A stretch of 52,505 bases of DNA from a virus (lineage: Duplodnaviria > Caudoviricetes), in the IMG/VR virus record IMGVR_UViG_3300046050_000049, positions 1-52,505 of that record; one strand, given 5' to 3'. Each line of letters opens with the position of its first letter. Within the stretch, counting starts at the first letter, position 1. The notes beneath the pieces are model-generated. The model ran no database searches. It was given only the letters and a program-made list of their open reading frames with translations, and was not told the DNA's origin. Both the position numbers and the translations under genes were made by a program. Positions 3,808 to 39,068 of the stretch are shown piece after piece.

Positions 3808-4004
3808 CGCCGCACCTCAACAAACTCACCACGAACAATCGCGGCTTTCTCACAGGGGTGCGTCGTCCCTGATGCCACTTCGTCGATATGCAACCACAGC
3901 CGTTCGCCGATCATATCCTCCCGAATCTCGCCGGCCGGGAGCCGCCGATTTGCGGCCGCGACAAGTTCGAGTTTCGGATCGTCGAAGGTGGTGTCGTCAC
4001 TCAT
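3804..4004 (-). CDS. Hypothetical protein
   Basis: ATGA overlaps. Confidence 0.6.
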   Translation of the reverse strand: MSDDTTFDDPKLELVAAANRRLPAGEIREDMIGERLWLHIDEVASGTTHPCEKAAIVRGEFVEVRR

Positions 4005-7842: not shown

Positions 7843-8270
7843 TCTCGTCCCTCCAGTTCGGCCGAGCCGCCGTCCGGGATGGCCTCGTCCGGGTCGGCAG
7901 CGAGGAGCTTCTGCCCCATCGCCGAGGTGGTGCCGCTGCCGCGAAGCGGAGGCCGCTCGACCGGCTCGTTACACCGTGCTCCGCAGTCGCGGCAGTACCA
8001 GTCGTGCGTGGCCTCCTTTTCCACGCCGCCGTGGCGTGGGTGGATATCTGAGCTATTGCACTCGGGGCAGGCTTGGACCGTCTCGGCGTTCAAGTCGGTA
8101 GGCTCTTGCTCGTCGGTGATGTCGGTACTGCTGGCGGGTCCTGTCCCTATCTCAGTCCCCGCTGTTTCTGCGTCGGGAGCCGCGCTGCTCGTCTCAGGGT
8201 CGCTGGTGCGACCCGACTGTACGTCCTCGTGGGGCTGAGTATTATGTGCCCCGTGGTCGTGGTCTTGCAT
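7839..8270 (-). CDS. First gene of the early operon; Zn-ribbon protein
   Basis: CPEC...WYCRDC module paralogous to one in the next gene. Confidence 0.7.
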   Translation of the reverse strand: MQDHDHGAHNTQPHEDVQSGRTSDPETSSAAPDAETAGTEIGTGPASSTDITDEQEPTDLNAETVQACPECNSSDIHPRHGGVEKEATHDWYCRDCGARCNEPVERPPLRGSGTTSAMGQKLLAADPDEAIPDGGSAELEGRE

Positions 8271-8287
8271 GGTCGGTTGACTTTCGC

Positions 8288-8364
8288 AAACTCCTGATGG
8301 GAGTTGACCCGACCCCGGCGTGTCCTTAGCACGCCGGCCTTCGCGTAGCCGGAAGGGCCGGGTC
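8288..8364 (-). ncRNA. Structured 5' leader of the early operon (multi-stem RNA)
   Basis: Outer stem GACCCGGCCC/GGGTCGGGTC, hairpin CCGGCGTG-CTAAGGA-CACGCCGG, hairpin AACTCC-CATCA-GGAGTT. Confidence 0.45.
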
Positions 8365-8435
8365 GTTACCTGTTACTGATGGGCTTCACTTAACTTTTTG
8401 TGTCTGCTAACACAATACGGAACTGAGAAACACAG

Positions 8436-8786
8436 ATGCGTACTAACTATAACAACGCTGAGAAATCCGATGCGACTAATACGGCGAATCCAGATACAGG
8501 AGACGTGGCTGAGAAGGGTAGCCGGGAAGTCATCTTGGAGTTCTTCGCCAGCCACGACTACCCCCACCAACCGCTGGATGTGTACGGTGGGCTGATTTAT
8601 ACTGGAGACATCACCTTCAGTTACCGGACAGTTCAAAACGCCATCTCGGAGCTCTCGGAATCGGGCGACCTCAGCAAAGTTGCTATCGACCGCGAGGATG
8701 GCGTCGTCAGAGAACTGCCCCAGAATACCAGCAAGCGCGCTCATTATGTGATCACTGACGAGGGGCGAGAGCGTATCAACGAGTGA
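8436..8786 (+). CDS. Winged-helix transcriptional regulator (repressor-like), divergent from the early operon
   Basis: ILEFFASH...SYRTVQNAISELSESGDL...YVITDEGRERI wHTH pattern. Confidence 0.75.
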   Translation: MRTNYNNAEKSDATNTANPDTGDVAEKGSREVILEFFASHDYPHQPLDVYGGLIYTGDITFSYRTVQNAISELSESGDLSKVAIDREDGVVRELPQNTSKRAHYVITDEGRERINE

Positions 8787-8844
8787 CGCCCCGACGGACA
8801 GCTCGGGGAAACGGCTTTTGACCGTGGGTCCCCTTAGGTCGCGT

Positions 8845-9084
8845 ATGAACGGCGCTGCCCTCGCGTTCCGGCTTTGACTGCTCGCAACCGGCAGCGCCGT
8901 TGCCGCCGCGGTCTGTATGTTCGGGGCCGTCGTCGTTGACCGCTGGATGCTCGCGTTGATCGTTCTGGGCATCATCGGCGCGGCCGTCGCCGCAGCCGTC
9001 GAAATGCTGTTTATTGTCGTCGAACTGAACCCCGACGTTAAGATCACCCTCGACACCGAGGGCGAGCCCGAGCGGGCGTCCTGA
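8845..9084 (+). pseudogene. Two-TM membrane protein gene with an in-frame TGA at codon 11
   Basis: MNGAALAFRL*LLATGSAVAAAVCMFGAVVVDRWMLALIVLGIIG...ERAS; TATA-like CTTTTGA about 25 nt upstream. Confidence 0.55.
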
Positions 9085-9093
9085 GCCGCGCGG

Positions 9094-9330
9094 ATGGCTG
9101 GGGACTCGCGAGCAGCGGCGGCGCGTGATCTCCGACTCGTCAGTGCCGTGTTCGTCGGAAACGTGTTCGTGCTGGCGCTTGGGTTTGGGGTCGTCGCTGG
9201 CAGTGCCTTTCTACTCGGTCGGAATGGCCTCGCGAACGTCTTCGCGAGCGGGACAGGATTCCTTCTAGCACTCGCGGCCGCCCTTGTCTTCGTTCGGTCG
9301 TCGCTCATCGGCGTTGTCGCTGGGCCGTGA
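9094..9330 (+). CDS. Small two-TM membrane protein
   Basis: Two hydrophobic stretches. Confidence 0.65.
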   Translation: MAGDSRAAAARDLRLVSAVFVGNVFVLALGFGVVAGSAFLLGRNGLANVFASGTGFLLALAAALVFVRSSLIGVVAGP

Positions 9331-9443
9331 GGCCCCCCCAGCGACTGCCATTGTCAGACGCACGTTCGACGACCGTTCGGAATTTGTATCGCAACATGTG
9401 CTTTATCTCGTCGTTCCGTCTGTGTACTGCCGAGGCCCCCTCG

Positions 9444-9689
9444 TTACTCCGCGTCGAGTTCGTAGCGGTCGTCCTCGCGTTCCAGCGGCGTGACATCATC
9501 GTCGACGAGATCGTCCAGCGCGCGCCGAACGTCGGGCTCGGGGAGATCGAGAACGTCGGCGGCCTCGTCGACGGTCACCGCGGTTCGGTCCCCGCGGAAC
9601 TTGCGCTGGAGCCAGTTGCCCAGCTGTTCGTGGACGTACGCACGCCGTTCGGGACCGTCGTCCGGGAGGTCTACTGCTGTGGTCGCCAT
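9444..9689 (-). CDS. Small winged-HTH protein
   Basis: VTVDEAADVLDLPEPDVRRALDDLV; TTTATTA TATA-like box about 28 nt upstream. Confidence 0.7.
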   Translation of the reverse strand: MATTAVDLPDDGPERRAYVHEQLGNWLQRKFRGDRTAVTVDEAADVLDLPEPDVRRALDDLVDDDVTPLEREDDRYELDAE

Positions 9690-9725
9690 CGCGACTGGTC
9701 GTAGCAGAGATGGCTGTAATAAACC

Positions 9726-9746
9726 GTGCCTCAATTCCGGGGGGTG
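9726..9746. promoter_or_regulatory. 21-bp element GTGCCTCAATTCCGGGGGGTG, copy 1 (ORB/G-string-like)
   Basis: Exact copy at 11798-11818; 37 bp upstream of a leftward ATG. Confidence 0.7.
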
Positions 9747-9776
9747 GAAGTGTCGATAGCTACTAGAAGAGGCAGG

Positions 9777-10025
9777 TTATTCTCCAACGCGAGTGGTTCG
9801 CTTTCCGCGGCAGTTCGGGCAGGTTGGACGGGCGGCATCGCCGGTGTACGGCCAGACGTTCCCACAGCCGTTGCACTGTCGAAGCGGGATAACTGTCCGC
9901 GTGACGAGCGCGTCACACTCTATGCAGACGGCCTTCTTATCGTGCCCTGCGGGATGGGTTTTATGATGATTGTTGACGTGGCCGTTTTCACACTCGTAGG
10001 CGATTTCTTTTCCGTCGGGGATCAT
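9777..10025 (-). CDS. Double Zn-ribbon protein
   Basis: CENGH, CIEC, CNGCGNVWPYTG...CPNC; TAATG overlap. Confidence 0.7.
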   Translation of the reverse strand: MIPDGKEIAYECENGHVNNHHKTHPAGHDKKAVCIECDALVTRTVIPLRQCNGCGNVWPYTGDAARPTCPNCRGKRTTRVGE

Positions 10026-10402
10026 TATCGTCCCCCCGCTCTGTCGCGGAGTTCGTCGGTCGCTACTGTGAGACTCATAGACCCGTAGCATTCTCCACAG
10101 GTCGCTTTAACACCGTTCCGCTCAGCTCGGCCCTTCTCCCGTGCTACGTAGTCGTCCCAAGAGTCGATGTCGTGGGCGTCGTCGTCGAACAGCCGTTGCA
10201 TCGACTCGTCTTCGGGGTCTTTGCGCTCCCACGGGAACGACCCGCCGATCTCTCTCGCCTCCGCAAGCGAGTGGTCGGCTTCGCGGGCGTGGCGGTCGCG
10301 AGGGCCGCGCCAGTAGAGATCGTTTTCTCCACAGCCGCACGCGACAAGCCCGTTCTCGTCTGATTCGACCTTGATCGTTAGCTCGCTCTTCTCGTCGCTC
10401 AT
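10025..10402 (-). CDS. Cys-containing hypothetical protein (MSDEKSEL...)
   Basis: CGCG and CGEC; overlaps both neighbours. Confidence 0.65.
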   Translation of the reverse strand: MSDEKSELTIKVESDENGLVACGCGENDLYWRGPRDRHAREADHSLAEAREIGGSFPWERKDPEDESMQRLFDDDAHDIDSWDDYVAREKGRAERNGVKATCGECYGSMSLTVATDELRDRAGGR

Positions 10403-10545
10403 CCTTCTGCCTCCATCTGGCAGGTCATGTCGCAGTAGTGATCTGCCGCCTTGACGGACCACGCATCCGCGCCGGGGTCGTCGCTCAGGTCAACGGTGAG
10501 TTCGTCGCCACAGTGCTCGCATTCGCTTTGGAATTGTCGGCTCAT
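10399..10545 (-). CDS. 48-aa Zn-finger microprotein (MSRQFQSECEHC...)
   Basis: Read by hand; directly after a TATA box; ATGA overlap with the next gene. Confidence 0.6.
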   Translation of the reverse strand: MSRQFQSECEHCGDELTVDLSDDPGADAWSVKAADHYCDMTCQMEAEG

Positions 10546-10557
10546 TGTGTCTCCCTC

Positions 10558-10606
10558 TGTCTAATGTTAGACACCGTGTGTATATAAGTCTTTCTCACAT
10601 TAGACA
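10558..10606 (-). promoter_or_regulatory. Leftward promoter (CTTATATA) flanked by two operators TGTCTAA-NN-TTAGACA
   Basis: Perfect palindrome 10558-10573, degenerate copy 10591-10606, TATA at 10581-10588. Confidence 0.65.
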
Positions 10607-10662
10607 CCTATCCGGAACCCGATATGCGGCGCGTGTCCTTCTTCCGTCTCCACCCGTCGGCG

Positions 10663-11760
10663 TCAGTCGTTGGACGTCGATCCCGACACGTTGATCGCCG
10701 GCTCGTCGGCGGTGAGCGGGTCGAACGTGACCCCGGGATCGATTTCGTCGTCAACGACGCCGTAGCGTCGGTCGTGCTCCTTACCCTCAAACTTGATCAG
10801 GTCGTACTCGTGCAGCTTCGCGAGCTTATTTCGTCGCGACCGCCGACAGATGGGCGTCTGTGGAGAGCCACGATACAGCCGCTCGGCGAGATAGTCGTAG
10901 TAAGCGTGAAGCGTCGCACCGTCGAGCGGCCCCCACGCGTGGATGATCCCGTACAGGATCTGATGATGAAGCGGGACGGACTGGATGTTCGAGGCACGAA
11001 TCATGTGCCGAGCTCGCTCATAACAGTCGGCGACATCGGCGTCGCGAATTGAGGCGTGCTCGCGCTCGACAGCCAACTGGGCGGCGGCGTACAGCGACTG
11101 GATGCCGCGTCGAGCGACCCCGGCCGTCTCGTCGGCGATCTCTCGAAGCTGTTCGTTGTCGACGACGCCGTCGCGAAGGCCCTGTATCGCTCGGGCGCTG
11201 AGGATGTCGGCGAGTTCGGTCGTGCTAAATCGATCAAGCTCGATCTGCGTAGCAATCGAGCCGCGAACGCGGTCGGAGCAGGCGGCGAGCCAGCGGTCAG
11301 GATTGTGGACGATGACGACGACGGACAGCAACGGACAGTCGAGCAGCTGGTCGAGTGCCTCGGAGTGGCAGAGGTCGTCCCCCTCGTCGCACACGACGAT
11401 ATACGGGTCGTCGACGGTCTCGCGAAGCAGTCGTGGGAGGCCGTCGGTCGGGGTGTTCGAGGCTGGCTCGGGGCCGCGGGGATAGGCCGCGATGACCTCG
11501 CGGAGGATTGTTCCAGTCCTCTTGCCGAGGGTCCGGATGTGGGTCTGCGGGACGCCGGCGTGATCGGCGACCTTATCAACGACGTGGCGTGCGAGGGCGG
11601 TCTTCCCGACGCCGGAGCTCCCGGAGAGGAGGACATCGTCGGCTCGATCACCGTGGACGGCTGGGGCGAGCGCGTTATGAAGGCGAGTAACGGGCTGATG
11701 CCGGTGGATGAGCTGTCGCGGCGGCCACTCGTCGGTGAAGACCCGTGCCTCCGTTATCAT
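10663..11760 (-). CDS. cdc6: Orc1/Cdc6 family AAA+ replication initiator
   Basis: MITEARVF start, Walker A GSSGVGKT, Walker B VVCDEGD, LADILSARA, GVARRGI, C-terminal wHTH. Confidence 0.9.
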   Translation of the reverse strand: MITEARVFTDEWPPRQLIHRHQPVTRLHNALAPAVHGDRADDVLLSGSSGVGKTALARHVVDKVADHAGVPQTHIRTLGKRTGTILREVIAAYPRGPEPASNTPTDGLPRLLRETVDDPYIVVCDEGDDLCHSEALDQLLDCPLLSVVVIVHNPDRWLAACSDRVRGSIATQIELDRFSTTELADILSARAIQGLRDGVVDNEQLREIADETAGVARRGIQSLYAAAQLAVEREHASIRDADVADCYERARHMIRASNIQSVPLHHQILYGIIHAWGPLDGATLHAYYDYLAERLYRGSPQTPICRRSRRNKLAKLHEYDLIKFEGKEHDRRYGVVDDEIDPGVTFDPLTADEPAINVSGSTSND

Positions 11761-15920: not shown

Positions 15921-15980
15921 TGTCACACATATGTGTACGACGGAAGGGTACTTAATACTGTCGCACAGAATTGTGCGACA
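15921..15980 (-). promoter_or_regulatory. Leftward promoter (TATTAAG) flanked by two 22-bp operators TGTCGCACA-N4-TGTGCGACA
   Basis: Perfect inverted repeat 15959-15980; degenerate copy 15921-15942. Confidence 0.65.
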
Positions 15981-15989
15981 AAAGCAGCG

Positions 15990-16460
15990 TTAGTCGCCAG
16001 TCGCAGACTCCGGGATGTCGACCGGCGGTCGAGCGTCGACGATAGAGGGAGCACGGTCAACGTGTGCGAGCGGACAGGTCTCGGCGTGCAGCACACCCCC
16101 CAACGACTCGTCAACCATCCCACACGAGCACTCGAAGCCGAGAACCTCGCCCTCGCACAGCCCGCCGCGCCCCTCTGTCTCGCCGAACTCGATGATGTAC
16201 GCGACCGTGTCGGCCTCAAACTCGGGCGACGGCGGTCCACTGTCGACGTACTCGGCCTTGTCGTAGAACCGGCGGCCGTGCGCGCCAGCGTGCGAGCAGT
16301 CGGCCTTGTGGAACAACTGGCGCGCGGTCTCGTCGACGGCGTTGCACTCACCGCAGAAGAAGGCGATGACCTCGTCGACCCCGTGGTCGGACGCGCCGGG
16401 ATCGGTGACGCGCAGCTGCTGGAGCGGCGAATCGTCGAGGTCGTCACGCGTGACCATCAC
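15990..16460 (-). CDS. Protein with an internal duplicated Cys/His module
   Basis: FFCGECNAVDE...HKADCSHA and FECSCGMVDE...HAETCPLA. Confidence 0.65.
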   Translation of the reverse strand: MMVTRDDLDDSPLQQLRVTDPGASDHGVDEVIAFFCGECNAVDETARQLFHKADCSHAGAHGRRFYDKAEYVDSGPPSPEFEADTVAYIIEFGETEGRGGLCEGEVLGFECSCGMVDESLGGVLHAETCPLAHVDRAPSIVDARPPVDIPESATGD

Positions 16461-16801
16461 GGTAGGTCACCCGGCGAGAGTGCGTCGGGATCGAACTCAT
16501 CGAGCGCGGCATCGAGGAGATCGTCGCGACGGCGGTCGCGAGCCTGCGAGAGATGTCCGTGGGCGCGTCCCAGATGGCCGCGGATCTCGTCGTGTCGCTG
16601 ATCGTCCGCGTTCAGCTCTAGTCGCCGGTACGTTTCCATCTCCTCAGCGCGTTCGGCCGCGGCCACGAGCCACGTCCACAGGTCGTCCTCTAGGAGAGCG
16701 TTCTCGGCGGCCTCGGCTGCACCCTCGTGATAGCGGAGAGCGATTACGTCCCACGCGACCGCCTTCGCTCGCTCGACCGCGCGGCTGTCGACATCAGCCA
16801 T
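16457..16801 (-). CDS. Hypothetical helical protein (MADVDSRAVE...)
   Basis: Operon overlap. Confidence 0.6.
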   Translation of the reverse strand: MADVDSRAVERAKAVAWDVIALRYHEGAAEAAENALLEDDLWTWLVAAAERAEEMETYRRLELNADDQRHDEIRGHLGRAHGHLSQARDRRRDDLLDAALDEFDPDALSPGDLP

Positions 16802-17162
16802 CGTGGCCTCCGTGCGTCTCCTCGAACACCGGGTCGCCGTCGACGTGCTGGCCGAGCTGATCGTCGACGTCGTCACGGTCGACCCACGCGGGGATGGCCT
16901 CGCGCCCGGTCGCGAATAGGACTCTCCGGATATGCTTACAGCCGCCTGACCGGTCTCGATACTGCGAGTCGGGGCACTCGCAGGCCGCGTCGCGAGCGTC
17001 GACGAGGTACTCGCTACCGGACTCGGAGACGACGAGGAACAGACCGGGCGCGTCACGAACCCGACCGACATCGTCCATGACGGTCAGATACTGCGTGAGC
17101 GCTCGCGCGTCGACCTCGTCGAGGACATCTTCCCCGTCCGCGGAGTCGGTTACGGCCATCAC
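16794..17162 (-). CDS. SWIM zinc-finger protein
   Basis: SGSEYLVD...CECPD...CKHIRRV. Confidence 0.8.
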   Translation of the reverse strand: MMAVTDSADGEDVLDEVDARALTQYLTVMDDVGRVRDAPGLFLVVSESGSEYLVDARDAACECPDSQYRDRSGGCKHIRRVLFATGREAIPAWVDRDDVDDQLGQHVDGDPVFEETHGGHDG

Positions 17163-20485: not shown

Positions 20486-20733
20486 ATTCGGACGATGACG
20501 TTCGTCAAAAAACCGGTTCAACGCATGGGGTGAGTGACGAGTGTGCCGATCACCTCCGCGCGGCGGCCGACTCGCTTGGCGATGTGCGGACTGACCTGAC
20601 CCACGCCGTTGAGCGTAGTCCAGGCGATACTGAAGCACTGATCAACGAGCACAGCGATATGGCGTCGCAGCTGCAGGATACCCTCCGCGAACTCGCTATC
20701 AACGTTGAGGTACTCGAAGAGGCCGACGAATAA
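20482..20733 (+). CDS. Small helical protein
   Basis: Overlaps both neighbours. Confidence 0.6.
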   Translation: MNSDDDVRQKTGSTHGVSDECADHLRAAADSLGDVRTDLTHAVERSPGDTEALINEHSDMASQLQDTLRELAINVEVLEEADE

Positions 20734-22532
20734 TGAGCACGCAGAACCCCACCGATAGCGACAGCGAGTCGGTTAGCGAGGACGGCGGCGACATCTCCCT
20801 TGAAGATCTCGGCGAACGACTCCGGTCGTCGACGCCACAGGACCTCCTCGCGCTCGCCGACCGACTTGACGAGACAGCCCGTCGTCGCGAGATCGCGCAC
20901 GTCGCAGATATCATCGACGAGGACGACGAGCAAGAAGAGCGCATCCGCCTCTATCCGAGCCAGCTCCGTCTCCATGTTGACGCGCCGGCCAAGGAGACGA
21001 AGACGACGCTCGGGGACCTCGCACACTTAGTCGAGACGAGCCACGACGGCGATGCCTCGATCTACGAGACCGAGCCGCTCGACATCTGGACGTCGCCCTA
21101 CGAGTTCGTCGACGAGCTGCTCGACGACTACGCGCGGACGGTCGGGCAGCTTCCCGAGTCGGTGGAGAAGCAACTCCGCCGAATCTGGGAGCGTGGGCAC
21201 GCCTTTCGGCTCCGCACCCATCCCGACGGCTTTACGGTGCTACGAGCGTCGACGACCGAACTCTTCGAGGATGTCGCAAAGGAATACCTTGAGCACAACG
21301 ACCACTACACGCAGTACCTCTCGGACACCGAAATGCGGGTCAAGTCCGGTGCCGAGGGCGATGTAAAAGAGGTGCTCTACGAAGCGGGCTACCCGCCGAT
21401 AGATGAACGCGACCTTGATCCCGGTGCTGACCTAAGCGTCAGCCTCGACGAGGATCTCGAACTCCGCCCCTACCAGCGGGAGTGGGTCGACCGGTTCCTC
21501 GAAACGGGAAGCGGCGTGATCGACGCTCCGCCCGGCGCTGGCAAGACGGTCGCGGCGCTCGCAGTCCTCGCTGAACTCGGGCAGGAGGCGCTCGTCCTCG
21601 TCCCCAGTCGAGAACTCGCCCAGCAGTGGCAGCAGGCGCTTGCGGAGGGGACGGACCTCGCAAGCGGCTACAGCCGGAAGATCGGTCAGTACCACGGCGG
21701 CGAGAAGAACCTCCGCCCGGTCACGATCACCACCTACGACATGGCCTCGAAGAGTCGGCACGGCCGGAAGCTCTTCGACCGCGAATGGGGACTCATCATC
21801 CACGACGAGGCACACCACACCCCCGCGTCGGTCTGGCGACGGACCTCCGAACTGCAGGCGCGCTCGCGGCTCGGGCTGACCGCGACGCCAGTTCGGTCGG
21901 ACGGAAAGAGCGAGGAGATCTTCACGCTCATCGGCCGACCAGTGACCTCGACGTGGGAAGAACTCTACGAGGCGGGCTGGGTCCATCGCCCGAACGTCGA
22001 GGTCCGGTTCGTCCCGTGGGCCAGCGGCGACGACCGCGAGGGCTACCGCTCTGCAGAGGGCACCCGGAAAATGATGGCGGCCGCGGAGAATCCAGCGAAG
22101 CTTCGAGAAACCCAGCGGCTCCTTGAGACGCACGCCGACGAGAAGGTGCTGATCTACTGCGGCTGGACCGATCAGGGCGAACAGTACGCCGACGTCCTTG
22201 ACCTCCCGTTCGTACAGGGTGAGACGCGGCACTCGCAGCGCGAGGAGTACTACGAGCAGCTGCGCGAGGGCGATCTGGAAGGGCTGATCGTGTCCCGAGT
22301 GGCTGATGAGGGGATCGACCTCCCTGATGTTGACACGGTGATCATCGCCTCGATGCTCGGTGGGTCGCGTCGGCAGGGTGCCCAGCGCGTTGGTCGAGTG
22401 ATGCGGCCGCTCGGCGGCGCAGACGCGTACCTGCTTGCGACACGGGGGTCGAACGAGGAGGAGTACGCCCGGTCGCAGATGAACTACCTTCGCGAACGGG
22501 GGACGACGGTCACCGAGACCGAAGTCGAGTAG
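20733..22532 (+). CDS. XPB/Rad25-like SF2 DNA helicase
   Basis: LRPYQ, PPGAGKT, DEAH, GLTATP, DEGIDLP, QRVGRVMRP; XPB-type N-terminal region ending EAGYP. Confidence 0.88.
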   Translation: MSTQNPTDSDSESVSEDGGDISLEDLGERLRSSTPQDLLALADRLDETARRREIAHVADIIDEDDEQEERIRLYPSQLRLHVDAPAKETKTTLGDLAHLVETSHDGDASIYETEPLDIWTSPYEFVDELLDDYARTVGQLPESVEKQLRRIWERGHAFRLRTHPDGFTVLRASTTELFEDVAKEYLEHNDHYTQYLSDTEMRVKSGAEGDVKEVLYEAGYPPIDERDLDPGADLSVSLDEDLELRPYQREWVDRFLETGSGVIDAPPGAGKTVAALAVLAELGQEALVLVPSRELAQQWQQALAEGTDLASGYSRKIGQYHGGEKNLRPVTITTYDMASKSRHGRKLFDREWGLIIHDEAHHTPASVWRRTSELQARSRLGLTATPVRSDGKSEEIFTLIGRPVTSTWEELYEAGWVHRPNVEVRFVPWASGDDREGYRSAEGTRKMMAAAENPAKLRETQRLLETHADEKVLIYCGWTDQGEQYADVLDLPFVQGETRHSQREEYYEQLREGDLEGLIVSRVADEGIDLPDVDTVIIASMLGGSRRQGAQRVGRVMRPLGGADAYLLATRGSNEEEYARSQMNYLRERGTTVTETEVE

Positions 22533-22698: not shown

Positions 22699-22905
22699 TT
22701 AGAATTCTGAGAGCCGCCGGCAGACGAGGGGCTGGCCGCCAGCCGTCCCGATGGCGTAGCGCGCCCAGAACGCCAACACGACGGGCGACAGGAACGTCAC
22801 AGCGGCGAATAGTGGGGTGAGGAGTGCCCCCAGAACCGGGTAGAACGGCCACACGAGAGCGAAGGCCACGCCGTCCGGCACCGAGTGGTAGGAGAAGCCG
22901 GTCAT
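22699..22905 (-). CDS. Small membrane protein at the end of the late operon
   Basis: Hydrophobic; ATGA overlap with adhesin C. Confidence 0.5.
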   Translation of the reverse strand: MTGFSYHSVPDGVAFALVWPFYPVLGALLTPLFAAVTFLSPVVLAFWARYAIGTAGGQPLVCRRLSEF

Positions 22906-23390
22906 GCTTTGCTGATGCTGTCAATGACGTAGCCGGAGCTAACGGTGTACTCTAATATCGTGTACCCGAAAATATTCTCGTTGTTGTTTCCTGAGAGTTG
23001 TCTGAACCTGTTGCCACCGAAGCCCCCACCATCTATGTTCACCCACCCGGTGTCGTGTGGCGATGTCTTCTGTTGGTCGTATATCTTCGTGCCGTCGTCC
23101 TCGTAAATACGGATCTCTATATCTTGATTAACAAATTGCAATTCCGCGTAGCATCGAACCCGGTCAGGCTGACGGTTCGTGATTCCTCCCCTGCCCGGAT
23201 AGAACTGTTTATATGATTCGCCATTATCCAGAAATTCGTCCCAGTAACAGCGACTACGGAACGTTAGTGAACTGTCGCTCACCGATACGTCGTACTCAGC
23301 ATCCGTGAACTGCGCGAACATGCTTGTACTCTCGCCGTTGTTCACGTCGACAGTCGACTCCATCTTCGCGTTGAAGCCTCGGAGGGGCAT
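22902..23390 (-). CDS. Putative tail adhesin/receptor-binding protein, paralog C
   Basis: Paralog of A and B; downstream of the tail fibre; aromatic and Gly-rich. Confidence 0.7.
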   Translation of the reverse strand: MPLRGFNAKMESTVDVNNGESTSMFAQFTDAEYDVSVSDSSLTFRSRCYWDEFLDNGESYKQFYPGRGGITNRQPDRVRCYAELQFVNQDIEIRIYEDDGTKIYDQQKTSPHDTGWVNIDGGGFGGNRFRQLSGNNNENIFGYTILEYTVSSGYVIDSISKA

Positions 23391-23391
23391 C

Positions 23392-23940
23392 TTACGCGGC
23401 CCTCCCCAGACCAACACTGGATGGTGCTGAACCCCCTCGATTAGTTACCCCCCCCCCTTTGCTGATGTCGTCGATAGAGTAGCCGGAGCTAACGGTGTAT
23501 TCTAATATCGTGTAGCCGGCGCACGACTCCTCGCTGTTTCCTGTCTCTTGTCTGAACCAGTTGCCACCGAAGCCCCCACCACTCGTGTCCAACCACCCGG
23601 TGTCGTGTGGTGCTGTCTTCTGTTGGTCGTATATGACCGTGCCGTCGTTCGCTTTAACACGGATGGTCATATCACCATCAACGTAATCAAACTCGCCGTA
23701 GCATCGAACTCTGTCAGGTTGACGGTTCGTGATCCCGCCCCTGAAAGGATAGAACTGATAATACTCCTGACCATCACTCAGATAGGAGTCCCAGTGACAG
23801 CGACTACGGAACGTTAGTGAACTGTCGCTCACCGACACGTCGAACTCGGCATCCCCGAACTGCGCGAACGTCGACGTGCTTTCTCCGTCGTTCACGTCGA
23901 CAGTTGAATCCATAGCCGCGTTGAAACCACGGAGAGGCAT
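23392..23940 (-). CDS. Putative tail adhesin, paralog B (G10 tract near the 3' end)
   Basis: MPLRGFNA...VSSGYSIDDISK-GGG tail. Confidence 0.7.
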   Translation of the reverse strand: MPLRGFNAAMDSTVDVNDGESTSTFAQFGDAEFDVSVSDSSLTFRSRCHWDSYLSDGQEYYQFYPFRGGITNRQPDRVRCYGEFDYVDGDMTIRVKANDGTVIYDQQKTAPHDTGWLDTSGGGFGGNWFRQETGNSEESCAGYTILEYTVSSGYSIDDISKGGGVTNRGGSAPSSVGLGRAA

Positions 23941-23941
23941 C

Positions 23942-24541
23942 TTATGCCACCCCCTCCGGACCGACACTGGATACTGCTTGAACTTCTATATCAGTTACCC
24001 CCCACCCCCCCCCTTTGCTGATCCCGTCGACAGAATAGCCCGAGGAGACAGGGACACGAAGCTCCAGCGCCCACTCCACCCTCAGGTCGGTGCCGGAGTT
24101 GTTGAATACCTGATACTCCAGCCGGTCGCCGGGGTGAGTCATCCAGCCGGTCGTTTTGAACTTGTCGTACTCGGCCTCGTAGTAAACATCGTTGTTGTCT
24201 TGATCCTCTACGTACATTCGCCATTTTTCGCCATCGTTCCCGACAAGCGCCGCTTGGAAACGAAATTCATCGGGAGGCGCAGAAGGACCGATAATGCCGG
24301 CGTCCGGCGACACGCCCGAACCGCCGTTGAGTACGTCATAGCCGTAGTTCGATCCGGGGTTCACATACTCAGAATCGGACCACGAATCATAACGGCCGCG
24401 CGTACCGATTTCGATGGTCTGAGTGTTGTCCGACACGCTCACGTCGTATTCGGTATCTGCGTACTGTGCGAACGTTGACGTACTTTCTCCGTTGTTCACG
24501 TTGATTCTCGAATCCATTTTGGCGTTAAATCCTCGAAGCAT
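23942..24541 (-). CDS. Putative tail adhesin, paralog A (G9-T-G6 tract near the 3' end)
   Basis: Same N- and C-terminal blocks, divergent core; TAATG-coupled to the fibre gene. Confidence 0.7.
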   Translation of the reverse strand: MLRGFNAKMDSRINVNNGESTSTFAQYADTEYDVSVSDNTQTIEIGTRGRYDSWSDSEYVNPGSNYGYDVLNGGSGVSPDAGIIGPSAPPDEFRFQAALVGNDGEKWRMYVEDQDNNDVYYEAEYDKFKTTGWMTHPGDRLEYQVFNNSGTDLRVEWALELRVPVSSGYSVDGISKGGGWGVTDIEVQAVSSVGPEGVA

Positions 24542-25908
24542 TATGCTATCACCACTGAGCCGCCGCCTGCGAGGTCGTAGTCTGTCGTCGTCGTGTTGTC
24601 CACGAGGAGCGCGACCGTCTGCGCGCCGCCGGAGCTGTTCGTGTACGATCCGCTCGCGTTGTCGTAGACCGTCCCGCCGTCGCCGGCGGCCACCGTCGTC
24701 TGCACCGTGTAGCCGCCCGCGCCGTCGAGGACCGCGATCACGAGGTCGACGCCGGTCGCGACGGCTGTCCCGTCGCTGTTCATCAGCGTGGCGCGGTCCA
24801 CGTCGAGCGTCTCGCCGTCCAGCACCTCCGTCGGCGCGATCAGGGCCGCGTCGCCGCTGGCCACCACGCCGCTCTGATATGCAGAGGGCACCTGTTGGGC
24901 CTCACTGTCCGAGTAGCGGGCGTGGTGGTTGTCCGGCTGCACGTCTTCCAGCCTGCTGTGTAGCGGCTGTCTATCCACGGGACCTTGGCTATATATTTGC
25001 CGCCAAGACCCATTCCAGTAGAACCGAAGCCCCTCGCTGTTGTCCCATCCAATCCTTCCCTCGTCGTTGGCTGCCTCATCGAACTCGATGTTGTTGAGTT
25101 TGACAGAATTGATATTATCCTTCACTGCCTCTTTCGCTTCGGCGTCCGAGTAGCGGCTGTGATGCACGTCGCTTGCTCCTGAGTGGTTGCTGAGTTCGGT
25201 TTCGGTCGCCGTCGCGAACGCCAGCATATCCTCAGTCACACCATCGGCTTCGACGCGAATATTCCCGTCCGCGTCCAGCGTGAGACCGTTCGCGACCGCA
25301 GCAGCGAGCGCATTCCCCGATATTGTCAGCCCTTTCCCGAGCGTCAGTTCAAGACCCTGCGCACCGTCTTCGGTGAGCGGGTCCGAGACTGAGACCGGGT
25401 TATGATGTGCTGCTGGGCGGTCGGCGTGTCGCTTCAGCAGGCGCTCATCAACGACCGACGTGACACCGCTACCGTCGGTGTCAAACGTCCAGAGCGGGAT
25501 CGTCGGGTCAAGATCGCCGAACGCGCTCGCGAGGCCGACGATCACTGTGTCAGCCGCGTCCCGATCTGCATCGTCGGCCGACGAATAAACAGCGGACACG
25601 TCCCAGCCGACGAACACTGTCTGTCCGGCTGTCGATGCTGCAAGGTCGACGTCGGTCGCCACATCGCGAGCGAGCCACCCATCGACAAACGCCTCGCCAG
25701 GGTCGATCGTCACCGTCAACGAGGTTGCCGAGTGGGTTTGGTCGAACGCATTCAGCACCGTTTCGTCGATACCAGAATCGGCCGCCTGCGACGACCGTGT
25801 TGGCTGTGTTGATGGGACGACCCAGCCGTCGGCAGCTTGTCCCCACGACTCGCCGGCTTCGACGGTGTGGACGAGACTCCCAGTCGCGCCGGGTTGTGCT
25901 CGATCCAT
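24541..25908 (-). CDS. Tail fibre protein
   Basis: Position; TIDPGEAFVDG N-domain; GKGLT/NGLT repeats; HHxRYSDxEA repeats. Confidence 0.75.
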   Translation of the reverse strand: MDRAQPGATGSLVHTVEAGESWGQAADGWVVPSTQPTRSSQAADSGIDETVLNAFDQTHSATSLTVTIDPGEAFVDGWLARDVATDVDLAASTAGQTVFVGWDVSAVYSSADDADRDAADTVIVGLASAFGDLDPTIPLWTFDTDGSGVTSVVDERLLKRHADRPAAHHNPVSVSDPLTEDGAQGLELTLGKGLTISGNALAAAVANGLTLDADGNIRVEADGVTEDMLAFATATETELSNHSGASDVHHSRYSDAEAKEAVKDNINSVKLNNIEFDEAANDEGRIGWDNSEGLRFYWNGSWRQIYSQGPVDRQPLHSRLEDVQPDNHHARYSDSEAQQVPSAYQSGVVASGDAALIAPTEVLDGETLDVDRATLMNSDGTAVATGVDLVIAVLDGAGGYTVQTTVAAGDGGTVYDNASGSYTNSSGGAQTVALLVDNTTTTDYDLAGGGSVVIA

Positions 25909-25910
25909 GA

Positions 25911-26456
25911 TTATGGGTTACTAAATGAGAGCGACACGTCGATGGTCGCCGTCGATTCGTCGTCCTTCACGATGTCTGAGATGAGCGCATGATTCAGCAG
26001 GACGTTCGATCCACCAGCGGCGCTCGTCACCAGCCCCGCTTCAACAAGTGTATTCCCGTTCGCTTCTGTGCTGTCTAAAAACGTCGATGTGAACAGCTCG
26101 CTGCCGCGGTCGGCGGTGTCGGTTACTGTGACTCGATAGACTTCGTTGTTCAGCGCGGAGTTGCCGCTGTCCGGTTGCGTACTGTCCGTACCGAGTGCGA
26201 GATGCGACGCCGACTCATCAACGGCCTGATCACCGTGGAGCTGGTCGACGATGAGCTCGTGGAGGCCGGTCGTCGTGATGTTTGATGATTCGACGACCCG
26301 CGTCGGCTCAACCTGACGAGCGAGCGAGAGCTGCTCCTGTTTCGAGAGCCCGTCCCACTCGTGATACCGCGAGCGAAGGTCGCCCACGTCGTGGAGACTG
26401 ATCCGGACGTTGTCGATGCCACTGATCTCTGGTGTAAGGTGTCTGTTGTCGCTCAT
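25911..26456 (-). CDS. Tail tip/fibre-attachment protein
   Basis: HLALGTD...ALNNEVYR...EANGNTLVEAGL motif typical of fibre-anchoring domains. Confidence 0.65.
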   Translation of the reverse strand: MSDNRHLTPEISGIDNVRISLHDVGDLRSRYHEWDGLSKQEQLSLARQVEPTRVVESSNITTTGLHELIVDQLHGDQAVDESASHLALGTDSTQPDSGNSALNNEVYRVTVTDTADRGSELFTSTFLDSTEANGNTLVEAGLVTSAAGGSNVLLNHALISDIVKDDESTATIDVSLSFSNP

Positions 26457-26487
26457 AGTTGCTCAATTTCGAGATCGCCGAGAACAG

Positions 26488-26811
26488 TCAGTCCCAGTAG
26501 TCTTCTTCCCAAGCCGCTTCGTTCCACGCTGCCTTCTCAACCGCGGCCGTGGTCGTGCTGGTCGCATCGCTGGTGCTGGTCGTCTCGTCAACCGCCGCAT
26601 CCGGACCCGTCGTCGCCGAATCCGTCGCGACGGCGGTGTCATTAACGGCCGCCGACGGGCCAGTCTCAACGGTGTCGTCGGTGGTCGTCGTTTCGCTGAC
26701 GCGCCGGAGAACACGCAAGACACCGCCGAACCGCTCGCCGGACTTCAGCCGATCAACATCCGACCGGAGATTGCGGAGTCGCTCTGCCGCCTCGCGGAGT
26801 GGGTCGCTCAC
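26488..26811 (-). CDS. Minor tail protein
   Basis: Position; Thr/Asp-rich with Trp-repeat C-terminus. Confidence 0.6.
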   Translation of the reverse strand: MSDPLREAAERLRNLRSDVDRLKSGERFGGVLRVLRRVSETTTTDDTVETGPSAAVNDTAVATDSATTGPDAAVDETTSTSDATSTTTAAVEKAAWNEAAWEEDYWD

Positions 26812-28253: not shown

Positions 28254-31058
28254 TTAGATGTCCAGTGCGTCAAGTTCGTCGCGGAGTGCCTTCGCGGCAT
28301 CGCGGCCCTCCTGCCGGCCGGACGCCTCAATTCGCTCGATGATGATCCGAGTCTCCCCCTCACTTGCGTCAACCGCACCGCGGTCGGTCACTTGTGCCGA
28401 CGGGACGACTCGCTCACCTGCATGCAAGATCGCCGCCCCTGCAGACTCGATCAGACCGCCCGTCGCGAGGCCGGTCATACCATGCGGGTCGTCTGGGACA
28501 GGTACGCTATCTGGACCGTCGTACACGGGGCCGGGCGAACCAGATCCGCCACTTGATCCACCCGAGGAGCCGCCACCGCCGGTACCACCACCGCCACCGC
28601 CACCACCACCGCCACCGCCACCACCACCGCCACCGATTGGATCTGGTGGGTCGGGCCAGTCGATATCGAGGTTTCCGTTGTACGCTTTTTTGACGATGGT
28701 CGGCAGCTCCGGCCAGTCAATATCGAAGCTGATCGCCCGGAAAACGGCACCAACAGCGTCGACCATCGCCTCCGCTGCGCTCTGTACCGCCCGCTTCCCG
28801 TCGTTTCGTAAGAACGCCGCTATCGACTGGATGGTCTCAGGAACAATGCTGTTTCCGATTAGTCCCTGATGAAGCCCTTCAAACGCAGCCATGACCACAT
28901 CGATGACAACACCGATGGCAGCCTTGAGGTCGCTCTTTGCGTCACTTATGAGATAGGACGCGATGTTTTTGATAAGTGACTTAACGATACCGCCCGCACC
29001 GATGACAGCCGTTTTCAGGGCGGACCAAGCTGCCTCGCCAACAGCCGTCAACACGAAGAATGCGGTCTTGAGGTCGCCTTTCGCATCAGTTCTGAGGTAG
29101 TTCACTGTCTGTGAAATCAAGGTCTTGATGATGCCCCCCGCGCCGATGATGGCGTCCTTCACCCCGAGGATTATCGTTCGAATGCCCAGTCCAAGCAGTC
29201 TAAACGCGGCCTTCACGTCCTCCGTGCCGATGTTCGTAATGTAGGTGACGATTGCGCTGAACACCGAACGGATCGTGGTTTCGATGGCCGTGAACGCGTC
29301 CGACACGAGGCCGCGAATGAGAGTGAACGCAGAATCGAAGTCGCCACGGACGATTGCGAGTCCTGCGCGGGCGAGCGTAATGACGGTGTCAAGGTAGGCC
29401 TTGACCACCCACGCGATGGCGCTGAACGCCGATTCTACGACGCCCATGATGCGGTCGCCATGCGCTGTCCAGAATGCCTGCAGTCGGTTGAGAGCGCCCG
29501 TCACGTACGGCTCGACGAAGTCGATGGCGGCCCGAACCCGACTGGAGATGATGCGCCACGTTTCCTTGGTTTCGGCCTGCAGTTTCTCACCGTGTTCCGT
29601 CCAGACTCCTTGGACGCCGCTGATGAACGGCGCGAGGAGGTCATTCCGGATGTAGTTGACCGCGTTCCCGACGCGTGTCTGCACCGCATCGAAGGCGGTG
29701 CGTGTCTTCTCCTGTATCCCGCCGATATCACGTTGCCACGCGACAGCAAGCCCAGCGATCGCGGCGATGGCGATGCCGATTGGACCGGTTAACGCCGTGA
29801 GTGCCGTTCCGAGGGCCGACGTGGCGGACCCGATAAGCCCAAACTGCGAGGCAAGTAGTGCCCCCCCACCGACCAACCCGCCAATGGCCGTTGTAACAAG
29901 TCCGATAGTGGCCGGAAGGCCATCGAATTGGTCGTTAAACCGGGTGAAGGCATCCAACGCGGGGAGGATCGCATCTTGGGTAAGGTTCTTTAGCACGGGA
30001 GCGAGTCGCTCGCCGACTGATCTGAATAGATTGTTCACACGGGCGCGGAGCAACTGAAATTGCCCCGACAGCGTGGAGGTTCGGATCTCCATCTCCCGTT
30101 GCAGGCTCGTCCCGTCCTCAAACTGCTCGTTGACTCTCTGTTGGGCCTTCTCTGTTCGGGACATCTGTGCGCCAAGCTTGCTGAAGGCTCGGGTAGCTCG
30201 TGTTCCGAGAGCTGAAGAAAGGTCTCTCGCGGCCTCTCCGCCGCCAACCATTTTCTCGCTTACAAGAGTGAGCAACTCCTCAGGACTCTCATCCCGCAGT
30301 TCTCGAAACTTCTCGGGAGGCATCCCCAGCGCCTGAGAAACGTCTTCGACCTTTTTTGGATTCATAAGTGCTTCCGCAGCACGTCGAAGCCCCCCAGCCG
30401 CTCTTCTACTGCTCGGAGAGACCTCATTCATCGAGGCGCTGAGTGCCAGTACGGCATCCTCCCCCAAGCCAAACTGCTCGGACAGAACGTTTGCAGCACG
30501 GGTAGCGGTATCAGTCACCTCGGAGGAGTTCGTTCTCATCGAGTCAGCGAGCGCGTTCACAGCATTTCCCAACTCCCCAATCTCATTCATCGGCGTCCCG
30601 ACCGCGCCAGCTATTTTTGCGAACCGCTTCCCGGCTTCTTCGGCGGCGAGATCTGTACCGACTGTGATTTTGCTGATGCTCTCGCTGAAGGAGAGAATTG
30701 CATCCTCACTCTCCGCGCCGAATTTCGCTGCTTGCGTCCCGAGTGCCGATAGCTTCTCAGCTGAGAGAGGAATTCGTTCGGCGAGCGTCTCAAACTGCTC
30801 AGAGAGTGTGGCAGCGATGTCGGTGCTACTTACCTTCTCGAGATCGGCGATAGCGTCCTCAAAATTCTGAAATTTGTCAACACTCGTTTTGAGTGCGCCG
30901 GTGGCGAGTGCTCCAAGAGCAATCCCGACGCCCCCGACTGCCTTTTTGAAACCACTTAACTTGCCGATGGAGTCGCTGATGTTCTGGTTGAACGACGATG
31001 TATCTGCCCCGACCGCGACCTGTACGGCGGGATCGCTGGAGAATGGATTTCTTGGCAT
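28254..31058 (-). CDS. Tail tape measure protein
   Basis: 934 aa, Ala/Gly-rich helical, FEDAIADLEKV, LTGPIGIAIAAI, GLATGGLI..G.A.LHAGERVVP. Confidence 0.92.
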   Translation of the reverse strand: MPRNPFSSDPAVQVAVGADTSSFNQNISDSIGKLSGFKKAVGGVGIALGALATGALKTSVDKFQNFEDAIADLEKVSSTDIAATLSEQFETLAERIPLSAEKLSALGTQAAKFGAESEDAILSFSESISKITVGTDLAAEEAGKRFAKIAGAVGTPMNEIGELGNAVNALADSMRTNSSEVTDTATRAANVLSEQFGLGEDAVLALSASMNEVSPSSRRAAGGLRRAAEALMNPKKVEDVSQALGMPPEKFRELRDESPEELLTLVSEKMVGGGEAARDLSSALGTRATRAFSKLGAQMSRTEKAQQRVNEQFEDGTSLQREMEIRTSTLSGQFQLLRARVNNLFRSVGERLAPVLKNLTQDAILPALDAFTRFNDQFDGLPATIGLVTTAIGGLVGGGALLASQFGLIGSATSALGTALTALTGPIGIAIAAIAGLAVAWQRDIGGIQEKTRTAFDAVQTRVGNAVNYIRNDLLAPFISGVQGVWTEHGEKLQAETKETWRIISSRVRAAIDFVEPYVTGALNRLQAFWTAHGDRIMGVVESAFSAIAWVVKAYLDTVITLARAGLAIVRGDFDSAFTLIRGLVSDAFTAIETTIRSVFSAIVTYITNIGTEDVKAAFRLLGLGIRTIILGVKDAIIGAGGIIKTLISQTVNYLRTDAKGDLKTAFFVLTAVGEAAWSALKTAVIGAGGIVKSLIKNIASYLISDAKSDLKAAIGVVIDVVMAAFEGLHQGLIGNSIVPETIQSIAAFLRNDGKRAVQSAAEAMVDAVGAVFRAISFDIDWPELPTIVKKAYNGNLDIDWPDPPDPIGGGGGGGGGGGGGGGGGTGGGGSSGGSSGGSGSPGPVYDGPDSVPVPDDPHGMTGLATGGLIESAGAAILHAGERVVPSAQVTDRGAVDASEGETRIIIERIEASGRQEGRDAAKALRDELDALDI
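28570..28634. repeat. CCA/CCG triplet microsatellite encoding poly-Gly in the tape measure protein
   Basis: Tandem CCACCG-type units. Confidence 0.8.
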
Positions 31059-35463: not shown

Positions 35464-36300
35464 TCACCCCTCAATGCGGACTGCGGCCGCCTCACGTTTG
35501 GGAGTCCATCCGTACGCGGCCTTGATCTTGGTCTTGATCGCGTCGGCGTCGAAGTCGGTCTCCTGATCGGTGTCGATCTCCTGCCATTCGCCCTCGTAGC
35601 CGAACTGATCGGAGTCGACGACGATTGCCTCGGGGTTGGCGGTCGCGTTGAGCGCGACGTTCGTTGTGTGCATGTAGGTCAGACCGCCGAACTCGCCGAT
35701 CTCACCGTTGCGGACGACCTCGTCGCCGATGTCGGTGCCCCGCTCAGCGAGGAAGTTGGTGATCGACTCCTTGCCGGCGGAACCGACGAGAGCCATGTCG
35801 GCCGTAAACCCGTCGTCGCCGCGCTGGGCGAGTTCGGTCGCGCCGGCGTTCATGTCCTGAAAGGACAGCGTGCCGTTGGCGTCGCCGACGGCCTCAGCGG
35901 CTGGTGCGGCGCTGTCGAGAACGGCGAAGGCCGCACGGTCGAGCCGCTTGCTCATGTTCTTCGCGTGTCCCTCGAGGTGGTCGTCGAGGAGGTCGAAAAT
36001 GTTGTCGTTGATGTCCTCTTCTGGAATCTTTGATCCCGTTTTGAAGATGCGCCGTTCGAGCTCCGGTCGGCCGTACTCCTCACGGTCGTAGGTCGTGTCT
36101 GCACCGGGTTCGACTTCTTCGGGCTCGCCGAGCGACTCGGCGGGGACCGGCACCTGATGCGTCTCACCGGCACCGTCCGGCACGCCACCGGGCGGTTCCA
36201 TGAAGAAGTCGCGGACGACTGTACGTGCCTCGACCCGTTCGGCCGCCAGTTCAGCGACGGTCTGCGGGTCGATGATCTGTTCGATGTTGGGTAGCGTCAT
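35464..36300 (-). CDS. Major capsid protein (HK97 fold)
   Basis: Position after protease/decoration genes; EEVEPGAD, GEIGEFGGL pattern. Confidence 0.85.
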   Translation of the reverse strand: MTLPNIEQIIDPQTVAELAAERVEARTVVRDFFMEPPGGVPDGAGETHQVPVPAESLGEPEEVEPGADTTYDREEYGRPELERRIFKTGSKIPEEDINDNIFDLLDDHLEGHAKNMSKRLDRAAFAVLDSAAPAAEAVGDANGTLSFQDMNAGATELAQRGDDGFTADMALVGSAGKESITNFLAERGTDIGDEVVRNGEIGEFGGLTYMHTTNVALNATANPEAIVVDSDQFGYEGEWQEIDTDQETDFDADAIKTKIKAAYGWTPKREAAAVRIEG

Positions 36301-38202: not shown

Positions 38203-39068
38203 GATGCGTCACCAGTCCACACGTGGTGGCTGCATCGGCAGTTCGGATGCCGAGGAAGGTTTCCGTAGGCGTTCGATGTTCGGTACGGCTCGCCGGCCTT
38301 GTACGCCTGACACTGCGGACAGGCATCTCCCGCGATCAGCACACCAACCCGCTCGACGCCGGCGCGCTCCCATTCTTGGAGGCGAGCCCGGTCGTGCGAG
38401 TTCATGATCTCCGTGCGAGCAATCATCGTCGCTCGGTTCATCGCCGCGCGAGGCGTCCCGTCCTCGACACGACCGATGATGTCAGTGAGACCGTCGGCGA
38501 TGTCTCGTGGGCCGTCACCAGCGGCCAGCCCCTCGGTAAGTTCACGCCGGAGGTCCGTCGCAACGGCGTTGGTCATCCCCTCCAGCTCGTTGAGATTCCG
38601 CGCGAACAAGGACTGGAGCTGCTCACGGTGGACAGGCAGGCGTAACGCCGTCGCGCCGGCACGCCCCTGTGACAGCTCCAGCGCGTGAAGTTCGGCCTGC
38701 GCATCGGTGACGCCCCGCTCGTAGGCCGCCGAGATGAACTGATTCTCGTCGCCGAAGCGAGTGAGGATATCCTGTTCTGTCTGAGTATCGAGCCACTTGG
38801 CGAACGCATCGGCCCGCCGAGCGTCGGTGTCGAAGTCGAACTGATCGCGGGTCGGGGTGCTCGCCAGCGACTCGATCCCGAGGGCATCGTGCTCAACGAG
38901 GCCACGACGGAGGGCGGCTCGGATGCCGACCCATGCACCGCGGAGCCGCTGGGCATATCGCTGTCGGAGGGACCGGGTGCGGGTTGGCTCCTCGCGCTGA
39001 CGCGCCCGACGGAGCTGTTGCCTATGCTGGCGGGTCCCAGTGATGTCGGCAGTTGCGGTCGCGCTCAT
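38199..39068 (-). CDS. SPP1 gp7/MuF-like head morphogenesis protein
   Basis: RATMIARTE...CPQC...PRHPNCRC. Confidence 0.88.
   Translation of the reverse strand: MSATATADITGTRQHRQQLRRARQREEPTRTRSLRQRYAQRLRGAWVGIRAALRRGLVEHDALGIESLASTPTRDQFDFDTDARRADAFAKWLDTQTEQDILTRFGDENQFISAAYERGVTDAQAELHALELSQGRAGATALRLPVHREQLQSLFARNLNELEGMTNAVATDLRRELTEGLAAGDGPRDIADGLTDIIGRVEDGTPRAAMNRATMIARTEIMNSHDRARLQEWERAGVERVGVLIAGDACPQCQAYKAGEPYRTSNAYGNLPRHPNCRCSHHVWTGDAS

Follow-up and report, generated by a model that had tools for sequence, protein, structure and literature searches.

The window analysed here is a 52,505-bp virus record (IMGVR_UViG_3300046050_000049) from a haloarchaeal tailed virus, complete or near-complete (CheckV 96%), with a GC content of ~63% (0.629). 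Its late operon harbors a fibre-like gene followed directly by three tandem genes, designated A, B and C. Sequence comparison and structural models suggest that these genes encode fibre-associated jelly-roll proteins of a rare family new to description, triplicated and diverged in this virus, and that host-binding knobs are their most likely identity, a conclusion we hold with about even confidence. The genes and the repeat considered first are as follows.

24541-25908, minus strand: fibre-like gene, 455 amino acids
23942-24541, minus strand: paralog A, open reading frame (ORF) of 199 amino acids, with a core of 176 amino acids whose ISK end lies at 24014; E 1.6e-72 to the family profile
23392-23940, minus strand: paralog B, 182 amino acids from the ATG at 23940, with a core of 161 amino acids ending at 23458
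22902-23390, minus strand: paralog C, 162 amino acids, ending ISKA-stop without a poly-G tract; its TGA overlaps the next ATG
22699-22905, minus strand: 68-amino-acid hydrophobic protein, whose gene closes the late operon and has an ATGA overlap with C
23797-23835, minus strand: 39-nucleotide stretch of B, codons 36-48, identical to 23247-23285 and the longest identical run between B and C

A sequence-only reading of the window had proposed three tandem paralogs directly downstream of the fibre gene with constant ends and variable cores, and the arrangement was borne out: all are minus-strand genes. The fibre and A overlap by 1 nucleotide (TAATG), and both the A/B and the B/C junction read TAA-G-ATG as had been stated. 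A, B and C have in common an N-terminal block (N-block) and a C-terminal block (C-block, VSSGYxxDxISK) that change little or not at all between the copies, and 55 invariant alignment columns uphold the shared blocks that had been described. A does have a different core, being 42% identical to B and carrying insertions there. B and C each have 161 codons and align without gaps at 79% nucleotide and 73% amino acid identity (102 nucleotide and 43 amino acid differences). The GC content of the three paralogs (0.505-0.547) is clearly below that of the fibre (0.635) and of the contig.

The differences between B and C are not spread evenly. As had been noticed, long identical stretches alternate with clustered substitutions: the nucleotide differences form 123 runs against 162 +/- 7 in permuted data, with none of 5000 permutations as low, and the longest identical run, 39 nucleotides, exceeds the permutation mean of 21 (p = 0.006). 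The ratio of nonsynonymous to synonymous substitution (dN/dS) is 0.49 overall, 0.13 in codons 1-20 and 0.28 in codons 21-40, and reaches 0.99, 1.29 and 1.46 in codons 81-100, 101-120 and 121-140, respectively. The description of the substitutions as aromatic-rich did not hold, since aromatic residues occupy 10 of the 43 variable and 16 of the 118 conserved positions (Fisher p = 0.15).

The predicted structures place this variation. AlphaFold2 modelled both A and B as a single-domain, 8-stranded beta-sandwich. In the model of B, built from a 12-row alignment, the sandwich spans residues 40-155 with predicted local distance difference test (pLDDT) scores of 84-96, and residues 1-37 score <50. 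The opening strand (34-54) and the closing strand (138-160) are both very long, which suggests that the C-block and the final part of the N-block together build a two-stranded arm. For A, the model (15-row alignment, pLDDT 72) shows a B-like layout, to which it adds an insertion of low confidence at 60-91 and an N-terminal hairpin that is weak. Structure prediction of the paralogs thus gave a confident jelly-roll core for A and B, but the N-block was poorly predicted. When residues are assigned to levels of the sandwich by topology, B and C differ at 25 out of 52 residues of the termini-distal half, compared with 10 out of 53 for the lower half and 2 out of 22 for the arm (Mann-Whitney p ~1e-4), in agreement with the expectation that substitutions would concentrate on one surface.

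Binding modules and virion knobs often have a jelly-roll fold. In structural comparisons B came closest to the XepA N-domain (Z 11.5, root-mean-square deviation 2.4 over 100 residues), followed at Z 7-10 by GOLD domains, Ena pilins, YPM, PirA, C1q, PRD1 P5, YomS and an HFTV1 tail chain; its best Foldseek match is Ena2A (E 5e-5). A matches the Tk-SP jelly roll (Z 11.6), GOLD (11.4, within a range of 11.3-11.6 shared with Tk-SP) and XepA (11.1). Among the best matches of A and B (Z 8-11.6) are also collagen-binding/PPC domains, and YomS scores Z 7.4-7.8, C1q Z 8.0 and the PRD1 P5 knob Z 8.0. A search of the family profile against all PDB sequences gave no match at E <= 0.1 and four at E 0.17-0.68, none of them XepA or YomS. 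The best score in the ESM Atlas, 0.83, was below the useful range.

The family is very rare. None of the three proteins matched a Pfam or PHROG family at E <= 0.01. No match was found in isolate phages (tblastn with A, B and the protein P0005) or plasmids (A), no relative was confirmed in viral contigs scanned with the family alignments, P0005, the fibre and the 480-amino-acid tail protein, and nothing was found in genome contigs scanned with the family alignment and the fibre. A word-indexed search of 5.8 billion clusters recovered only B and C. A HMMER scan of 1.84 billion representatives with a three-sequence profile yielded 14 proteins at E <= 1e-3, namely two from the window, three long repeat proteins and nine of 147-174 amino acids with both end blocks. 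The long repeat proteins (P0004, P0012 and P0015) were dropped as spurious. A profile search added three further members, resulting in a family of 15 proteins, three from the window and 12 from outside. The outside members belong to clusters of one or two sequences from metagenome sources and carry no functional name. Across 12 members compared with the family libraries at E <= 1, no family was matched by more than one. The family is not described in the passages of PMC8651126 and PMC12494034 used here, nor in a non-exhaustive literature search on haloarchaeal fibre adhesins.

In the alignment of all 15 members the N-block is kept, the C-terminal block is shared and the cores are hard to align. 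Single-copy relatives with 20-30% identity retain both end blocks, and all 12 outside relatives end 1-3 residues past the C-block. Because the outside members share both blocks, constant ends and a variable core are a trait of the whole family and not of the array. The family profile revealed no longer or fused forms, although this is weak evidence.

The link to a fibre gene is also shared. In the window and in the three outside loci L006, L007 and L008, the gene directly upstream of the family gene is fibre-like, and its stop overlaps the family ATG as TAATG in 4/4 loci. The upstream shaft is homologous to that of the window fibre in L006 (E 3e-15) and L008; only the upstream gene's C-terminal portion is present in L007, and it matches the C-terminus of the L006 fibre (E 8e-10). 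The family profile detected one copy each in L006, L007 and L008 and no copy in the examined regions of phiCh1, ChaoS9, HCTV-2 and HHTV-2. Both loci with readable flanks on either side (L006 and L007) are single-copy, compared to three copies in the window.

L006 is an SNJ1/HJIV-1-like tail-less element and not a tailed virus, as judged from its gene content. It encodes a HerA-like packaging ATPase that shares 34-40% identity with the corresponding enzymes of HJIV-1, NVIV-1 and SNJ1 (39% for SNJ1/HJIV-1). A scan of 10 of its ORFs detected no tail, portal or HK97-type capsid family, and the sole PHROG match to 'terminase large subunit' was this packaging ATPase. Since a fibre-shaft gene with a family gene is found in two virus types that are unrelated, its role is more likely to lie in recognising the host than in assembling a tail, and host-recognition modules appear to be common to unrelated lineages in halite and brine communities. 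L006 also has a three-gene run of fibre-shaft gene, family gene and small membrane protein (3699-10779) and an integrase-like ORF (15977-17029), and its family gene shows a similar GC contrast, 0.585 compared to 0.686 for the L006 fibre.

The window fibre is a chimera of a phiCh1-like N-terminus, a shaft with HH motifs and a halovirus baseplate-like C-terminus. Residues 2-158 are 48-50% identical to phiCh1 ORF33 and ChaoS9 gp32, each of which is encoded immediately ahead of the invertible fibre locus of its virus. The middle forms a shaft with repeated HH motifs. The fibre matches Adeno_shaft at E 3e-6, below the cut-off. Three HH-containing motifs are present (AHHNP, VHHSRYSD and NHHARYSD), two of them inside a 37-nucleotide direct repeat; according to passages of PMC12494034, zinc is coordinated via histidines in HFTV1 fibres. 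Residues ~330-446 match the C-terminus of a 'baseplate protein' of HCTV-2, HHTV-2, HVTV-1 and HCTV-5 at 34-40% identity. The PHROG matches of the fibre are phrog_18555 (E 2e-48) and phrog_20556 (E 2e-22), and the 'baseplate protein' PHROG matched by the C-terminal domain is T4 gp9/gp10-like only by the annotation of one halovirus record. In HCTV-2 and HHTV-2 (L010 5384-6481; L011 5348-6478), the protein sharing this C-terminal domain is directly followed by a laminin-G (lectin-fold) protein. By analogy, this layout fits a platform with a lectin-like partner, and the laminin-G set of these viruses may be an analogous adhesin set. The laminin-G-domain protein is in turn followed by a beta-propeller protein or small proteins.

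Taken as host-binding proteins, the family would comprise proteins of ~150-175 amino acids that are co-translated and work with a fibre or spike-shaft protein, most likely as its distal host-binding subunit, an adhesin or lectin-like protein. The N-terminal ~40 residues and the C-terminal strand would form the attaching or oligomerising part. The termini-distal loops and strand ends, where variation is observed, would form a variable face at which binding presumably takes place. A, B and C are tandem duplicates, and in this reading A is the oldest copy and B/C the most recent split. Because a single late operon encodes all three, its stops and starts being closely coupled, a given virus would have three specificities to carry or to select from. 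The sources of diversity would be gene duplication and point substitutions, under selection that is relaxed or positive; B and C would undergo gene conversion occasionally at most, and no invertase, diversity-generating retroelement (DGR) or dedicated cassette-swapping would be involved. Such gene conversion is possible given the long identical runs in the core and the uneven synonymous divergence (dS). According to passages of PMC8651126, only phiCh1 inversion and the gp38-like adhesins of hafunaviruses have been characterised as means of host recognition in haloarchaeal viruses. The family adds a very rare protein type that accompanies fibre-shaft genes, both in a virus with a tail and in an SNJ1-like element without one, and the close variants B and C, together with the distant A, provide a natural set for mapping a binding face.

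Several points weigh against a host-binding role. Presence in the virion and binding to fibre or host are predictions. The fold is generic, with matches at Z 8-11 scattered over unrelated protein families, and does not fix the function. The overall dN/dS of B and C is <1, and the windows with values >1 are each just 20 codons long. The residues were placed by the strand order of the model, that is, by topology and not by coordinates. The three readable outside loci (L006, L007 and L008) come from two contig-name sets only (Ga0207770/Ga0207771 and Ga0102939), contigs no longer than 2.5 kb carry 6 of the 12 outside members, and nine are represented without a locus. Finally, the C-termini of the window and L006 fibres are not homologous, yet the N-blocks that follow them are related, which does not fit simple docking at the fibre tip. 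Docking there was not adopted as established because these C-termini are not homologous. Of the receptor-binding repertoire originally envisaged, the true paralogs, the link to the fibre, the binding-module-like fold and the one-ended variation stand, but not the use of the blocks as recombination handles.

Among known systems, the closest logic is that of gp38 of T2 and T6. According to passages of PMC3157838, gp38 has its attachment domain in the N-terminal part and its specificity domain in the remainder, and conserved motifs are frequent sites of exchange, either within them or close by; passages of PMC8651126 report for the haloarchaeal hafunaviruses a glycine-rich, gp38-like adhesin whose distribution follows host range. 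Both gp38 and the family are small proteins in which conserved and variable segments alternate, encoded just downstream of the distal fibre gene, and the TAATG overlap in 4/4 loci places the family gene where gp38 would be. However, membership fails on sequence and fold: the family has no sequence match to gp38, its alignments lack the glycine-rich motif series, and it is predicted to form a beta-jelly roll instead of a polyglycine sandwich. Unlike gp38, it has both ends conserved, occurs in three tandem copies and is also found in a tail-less element.

Phages with several receptor-binding proteins, such as CBA120 and those with G7C-type branched complexes, use a shared N-terminal anchor and variable heads. 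The array resembles them in having neighboring genes for several such proteins, whose attachment end is conserved and whose binding parts diverge, and a further point of resemblance is the match of the fibre's C-terminal domain to the 'baseplate protein' PHROG with its gp9/gp10-like label. It differs in that its products are very small single domains and not tailspikes, and docking would be hypothetical here.

A fibre assembly chaperone of the Tfa type, made with the fibre, aiding its folding and absent from or only loosely attached to the virion, is the strongest alternative, although an unlikely one. The small size of the proteins and their position directly after the fibre gene with stop/start overlap would suit such a role, and phiCh1 and ChaoS9 also have a small gene, encoding ~95 amino acids, after each fibre gene. 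However, a chaperone would not be expected to exist as three diverged copies for one fibre gene, nor to have its variation, with dN/dS close to or >1, confined largely to one end of a beta-sandwich that is itself stable. In addition, 0/3 proteins match the Pfam or PHROG tail-assembly families (Tfa/Caudo_TAP), and the family follows fibres with unrelated C-termini.

Slightly less likely again is a role in egress, in which A, B and C would be XepA-like lysis accessory proteins acting with a downstream holin-like small membrane protein and not in adsorption. PBSX XepA, considered here together with SPbeta YomS, is the best structural match of B and near-best of A, and passages of PMC6834076 describe it as a small beta-sandwich protein of unclear function from the late region of a prophage, located within the lytic cassette and cytotoxic to Bacillus, both of which would favor such a role. 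The 68-amino-acid protein downstream of C is hydrophobic, with 19-residue windows of Kyte-Doolittle mean >1.5 covering approximately residues 11-52, and in 2 of the 3 loci with a readable downstream region, the window and L006, the gene after the family gene encodes a small hydrophobic protein. However, the window and L006 membrane proteins have no detectable similarity to each other, and the downstream ORF of L007 has only 23 codons. The mechanism of XepA itself is unsettled in the same passages of PMC6834076. Since Tk-SP and GOLD match A as well as XepA does, the XepA match may reflect a common fold; unrelated beta-sandwiches match equally. XepA is a pentameric, two-domain dumbbell, whereas A and B are modelled as single-domain, share no sequence similarity with XepA or YomS or with any PDB chain at E <= 0.1, and have no endolysin nearby.

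An actively switching repertoire, in which recombination between shared blocks or slippage at poly-G tracts alters the paralog or chimera that is made, is improbable. Like the host-binding proposal, it would provide alternative host-binding proteins for one virus, as the invertible locus of phiCh1 and phiH1 and DGRs do, and the N-terminus of the window fibre is homologous to phiCh1 ORF33, the neighbor of that locus. The array is nevertheless distinct from both systems, as had been anticipated, because neither their machinery nor long inverted repeats were found in the contig. No invertase or reverse transcriptase is adjacent, in accordance with the sequence-only reading, and none occurs elsewhere in the contig. 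No resolvase was detected in the contig, and its only tyrosine recombinase, at 2-1366, lies ~21 kb from the array. A search for RVT_1 gave no match in the contig, although control genomes gave matches. The array is not flanked by long inverted repeats, and its copies all share one orientation and are intact.

Recombination would be favored by the identical runs between B and C (39, 22, 21, 21 and 18 nucleotides) and by the uneven dS, which is 0.17-0.2 in codons 101-140 and 0.5-0.8 in codons 1-40, the N-block being highest (0.8 and 0.53). The longer runs (39, 22, 21 and 18 nucleotides), however, are within the beta-sandwich core, the 39-nucleotide run covering the end of the N-block and the first strand. 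Identical runs inside the blocks are short, 15 nucleotides in the N-block and 21 in the C-block of B and C, and 9-13 nucleotides between A and either B or C. The blocks are conserved as protein in the 12 relatives and their synonymous sites have diverged, so the proposal that they serve as recombination handles is unsupported. The assembled contigs of three runs contain no joint or alternative arrangement; no raw reads were compared, and rare variants would not be visible in contigs. In the second run of the same halite study (X2), a contig over the 5' two-thirds of A and the 3' end of the fibre (24197-24900) differs at 73 of 704 positions (~90% identity), and pieces over the 3' half of C, the 68-amino-acid gene and 26094-26500 differ by 1-2%, which is consistent with a local between-strain hotspot at A and the fibre 3' end. 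The X1 contigs break at the 39-nucleotide repeat and close to each poly-G tract, so that 23434-23447 and 23827-23988 have no coverage, and the X2 contigs leave ~23170-24170 uncovered; these gaps carry no evidential weight.

The poly-G tracts that bear on switching lie directly after the ISK codons of A and B.

23998-24013, minus strand: poly-G tract of A, G9-T-G6 on the coding strand; out-of-frame TAA at 23995-23997
23448-23457, minus strand: poly-G tract of B, G10, the longest homopolymer of the contig; out-of-frame TAA at 23445-23447

G10 and the G9 of A are the two longest homopolymers of the contig, all others being <= 7. The C-block is common to all three paralogs, as had been claimed, but it is not the end of the A and B ORFs, which continue past it and through the poly-G for 19-23 more codons to a TAA ahead of the next ATG. 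The TAA after each tract is one base out of frame, and for this reason the A and B ORFs read through a 57-nucleotide spacer to a TAA that abuts the next ATG. With one G fewer, the adjacent TAA is in frame and the stop lies 54 nucleotides upstream of the ATG of the next paralog. Both tracts are therefore long homopolymers at a coding end where a change of +/-1 alters the product, as in homopolymer contingency loci, and their presence at the equivalent site of A and B, with one base setting an early stop or a stop by the next ATG, would favor switching. The spacers of A and B differ at 17 positions with no excess at third positions (5/8/4), and all 12 outside relatives end after the block; for both reasons the tails look like former intergenic spacers, with Shine-Dalgarno-like GGAGG motifs ahead of each following ATG.

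The read-on may be a homopolymer assembly slip, a tolerated read-through or a slippage-sensitive switch. That it is a slipped-strand switch, making the array an invertase-free phase-variable adhesin repertoire in an archaeal virus, is a doubtful proposition drawn from the sequence. At the assembled tract length the stop lies one base before the next ATG, which favors termination-reinitiation. Since the position of the stop depends on tract length, slippage could set the output of B and C in each virion lineage, and the presence or absence of a 19-amino-acid tail on A and B could likewise depend on it. If true, such a switch would add to the known means by which archaeal viruses diversify adhesins.

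Least probable is that A, B and C are not alternative adhesins but subunits of a single hetero-oligomeric knob, comparable to the three chains of C1q: three co-translated paralogs with both ends in common and a fold like that of trimeric knobs (C1q and PRD1 P5, both Z 8.0) would fit, as would the single copy in 2/2 fully flanked loci, which would then form a homo-oligomer, but the fold matches are generic.

The array and its fibre gene lie at the end of a late operon on the minus strand that encodes, in order, the large terminase, portal, head morphogenesis protein, major head protein, tape measure, a 480-amino-acid protein, a 181-amino-acid protein and the 455-amino-acid fibre-like protein. 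Scans of the contig found no Rfam family and no tRNA, and promoter-like and terminator-like sites were not above those of shuffles. Other genes located in the window are as follows.

40591-42255, minus strand: large terminase
39065-40585, minus strand: portal
35464-36300, minus strand: major head protein
28254-31058, minus strand: tape measure
20733-22532, plus strand: helicase gene, convergent with the gene of the 68-amino-acid protein

Beside the packaging genes, 42806-44020 encodes a ParB-like domain fused to a DNA methyltransferase. The tyrosine integrase at the contig end (2-1366) contains a Phage_integrase match at 557-1042, and its presence suggests a temperate lifestyle for the virus.

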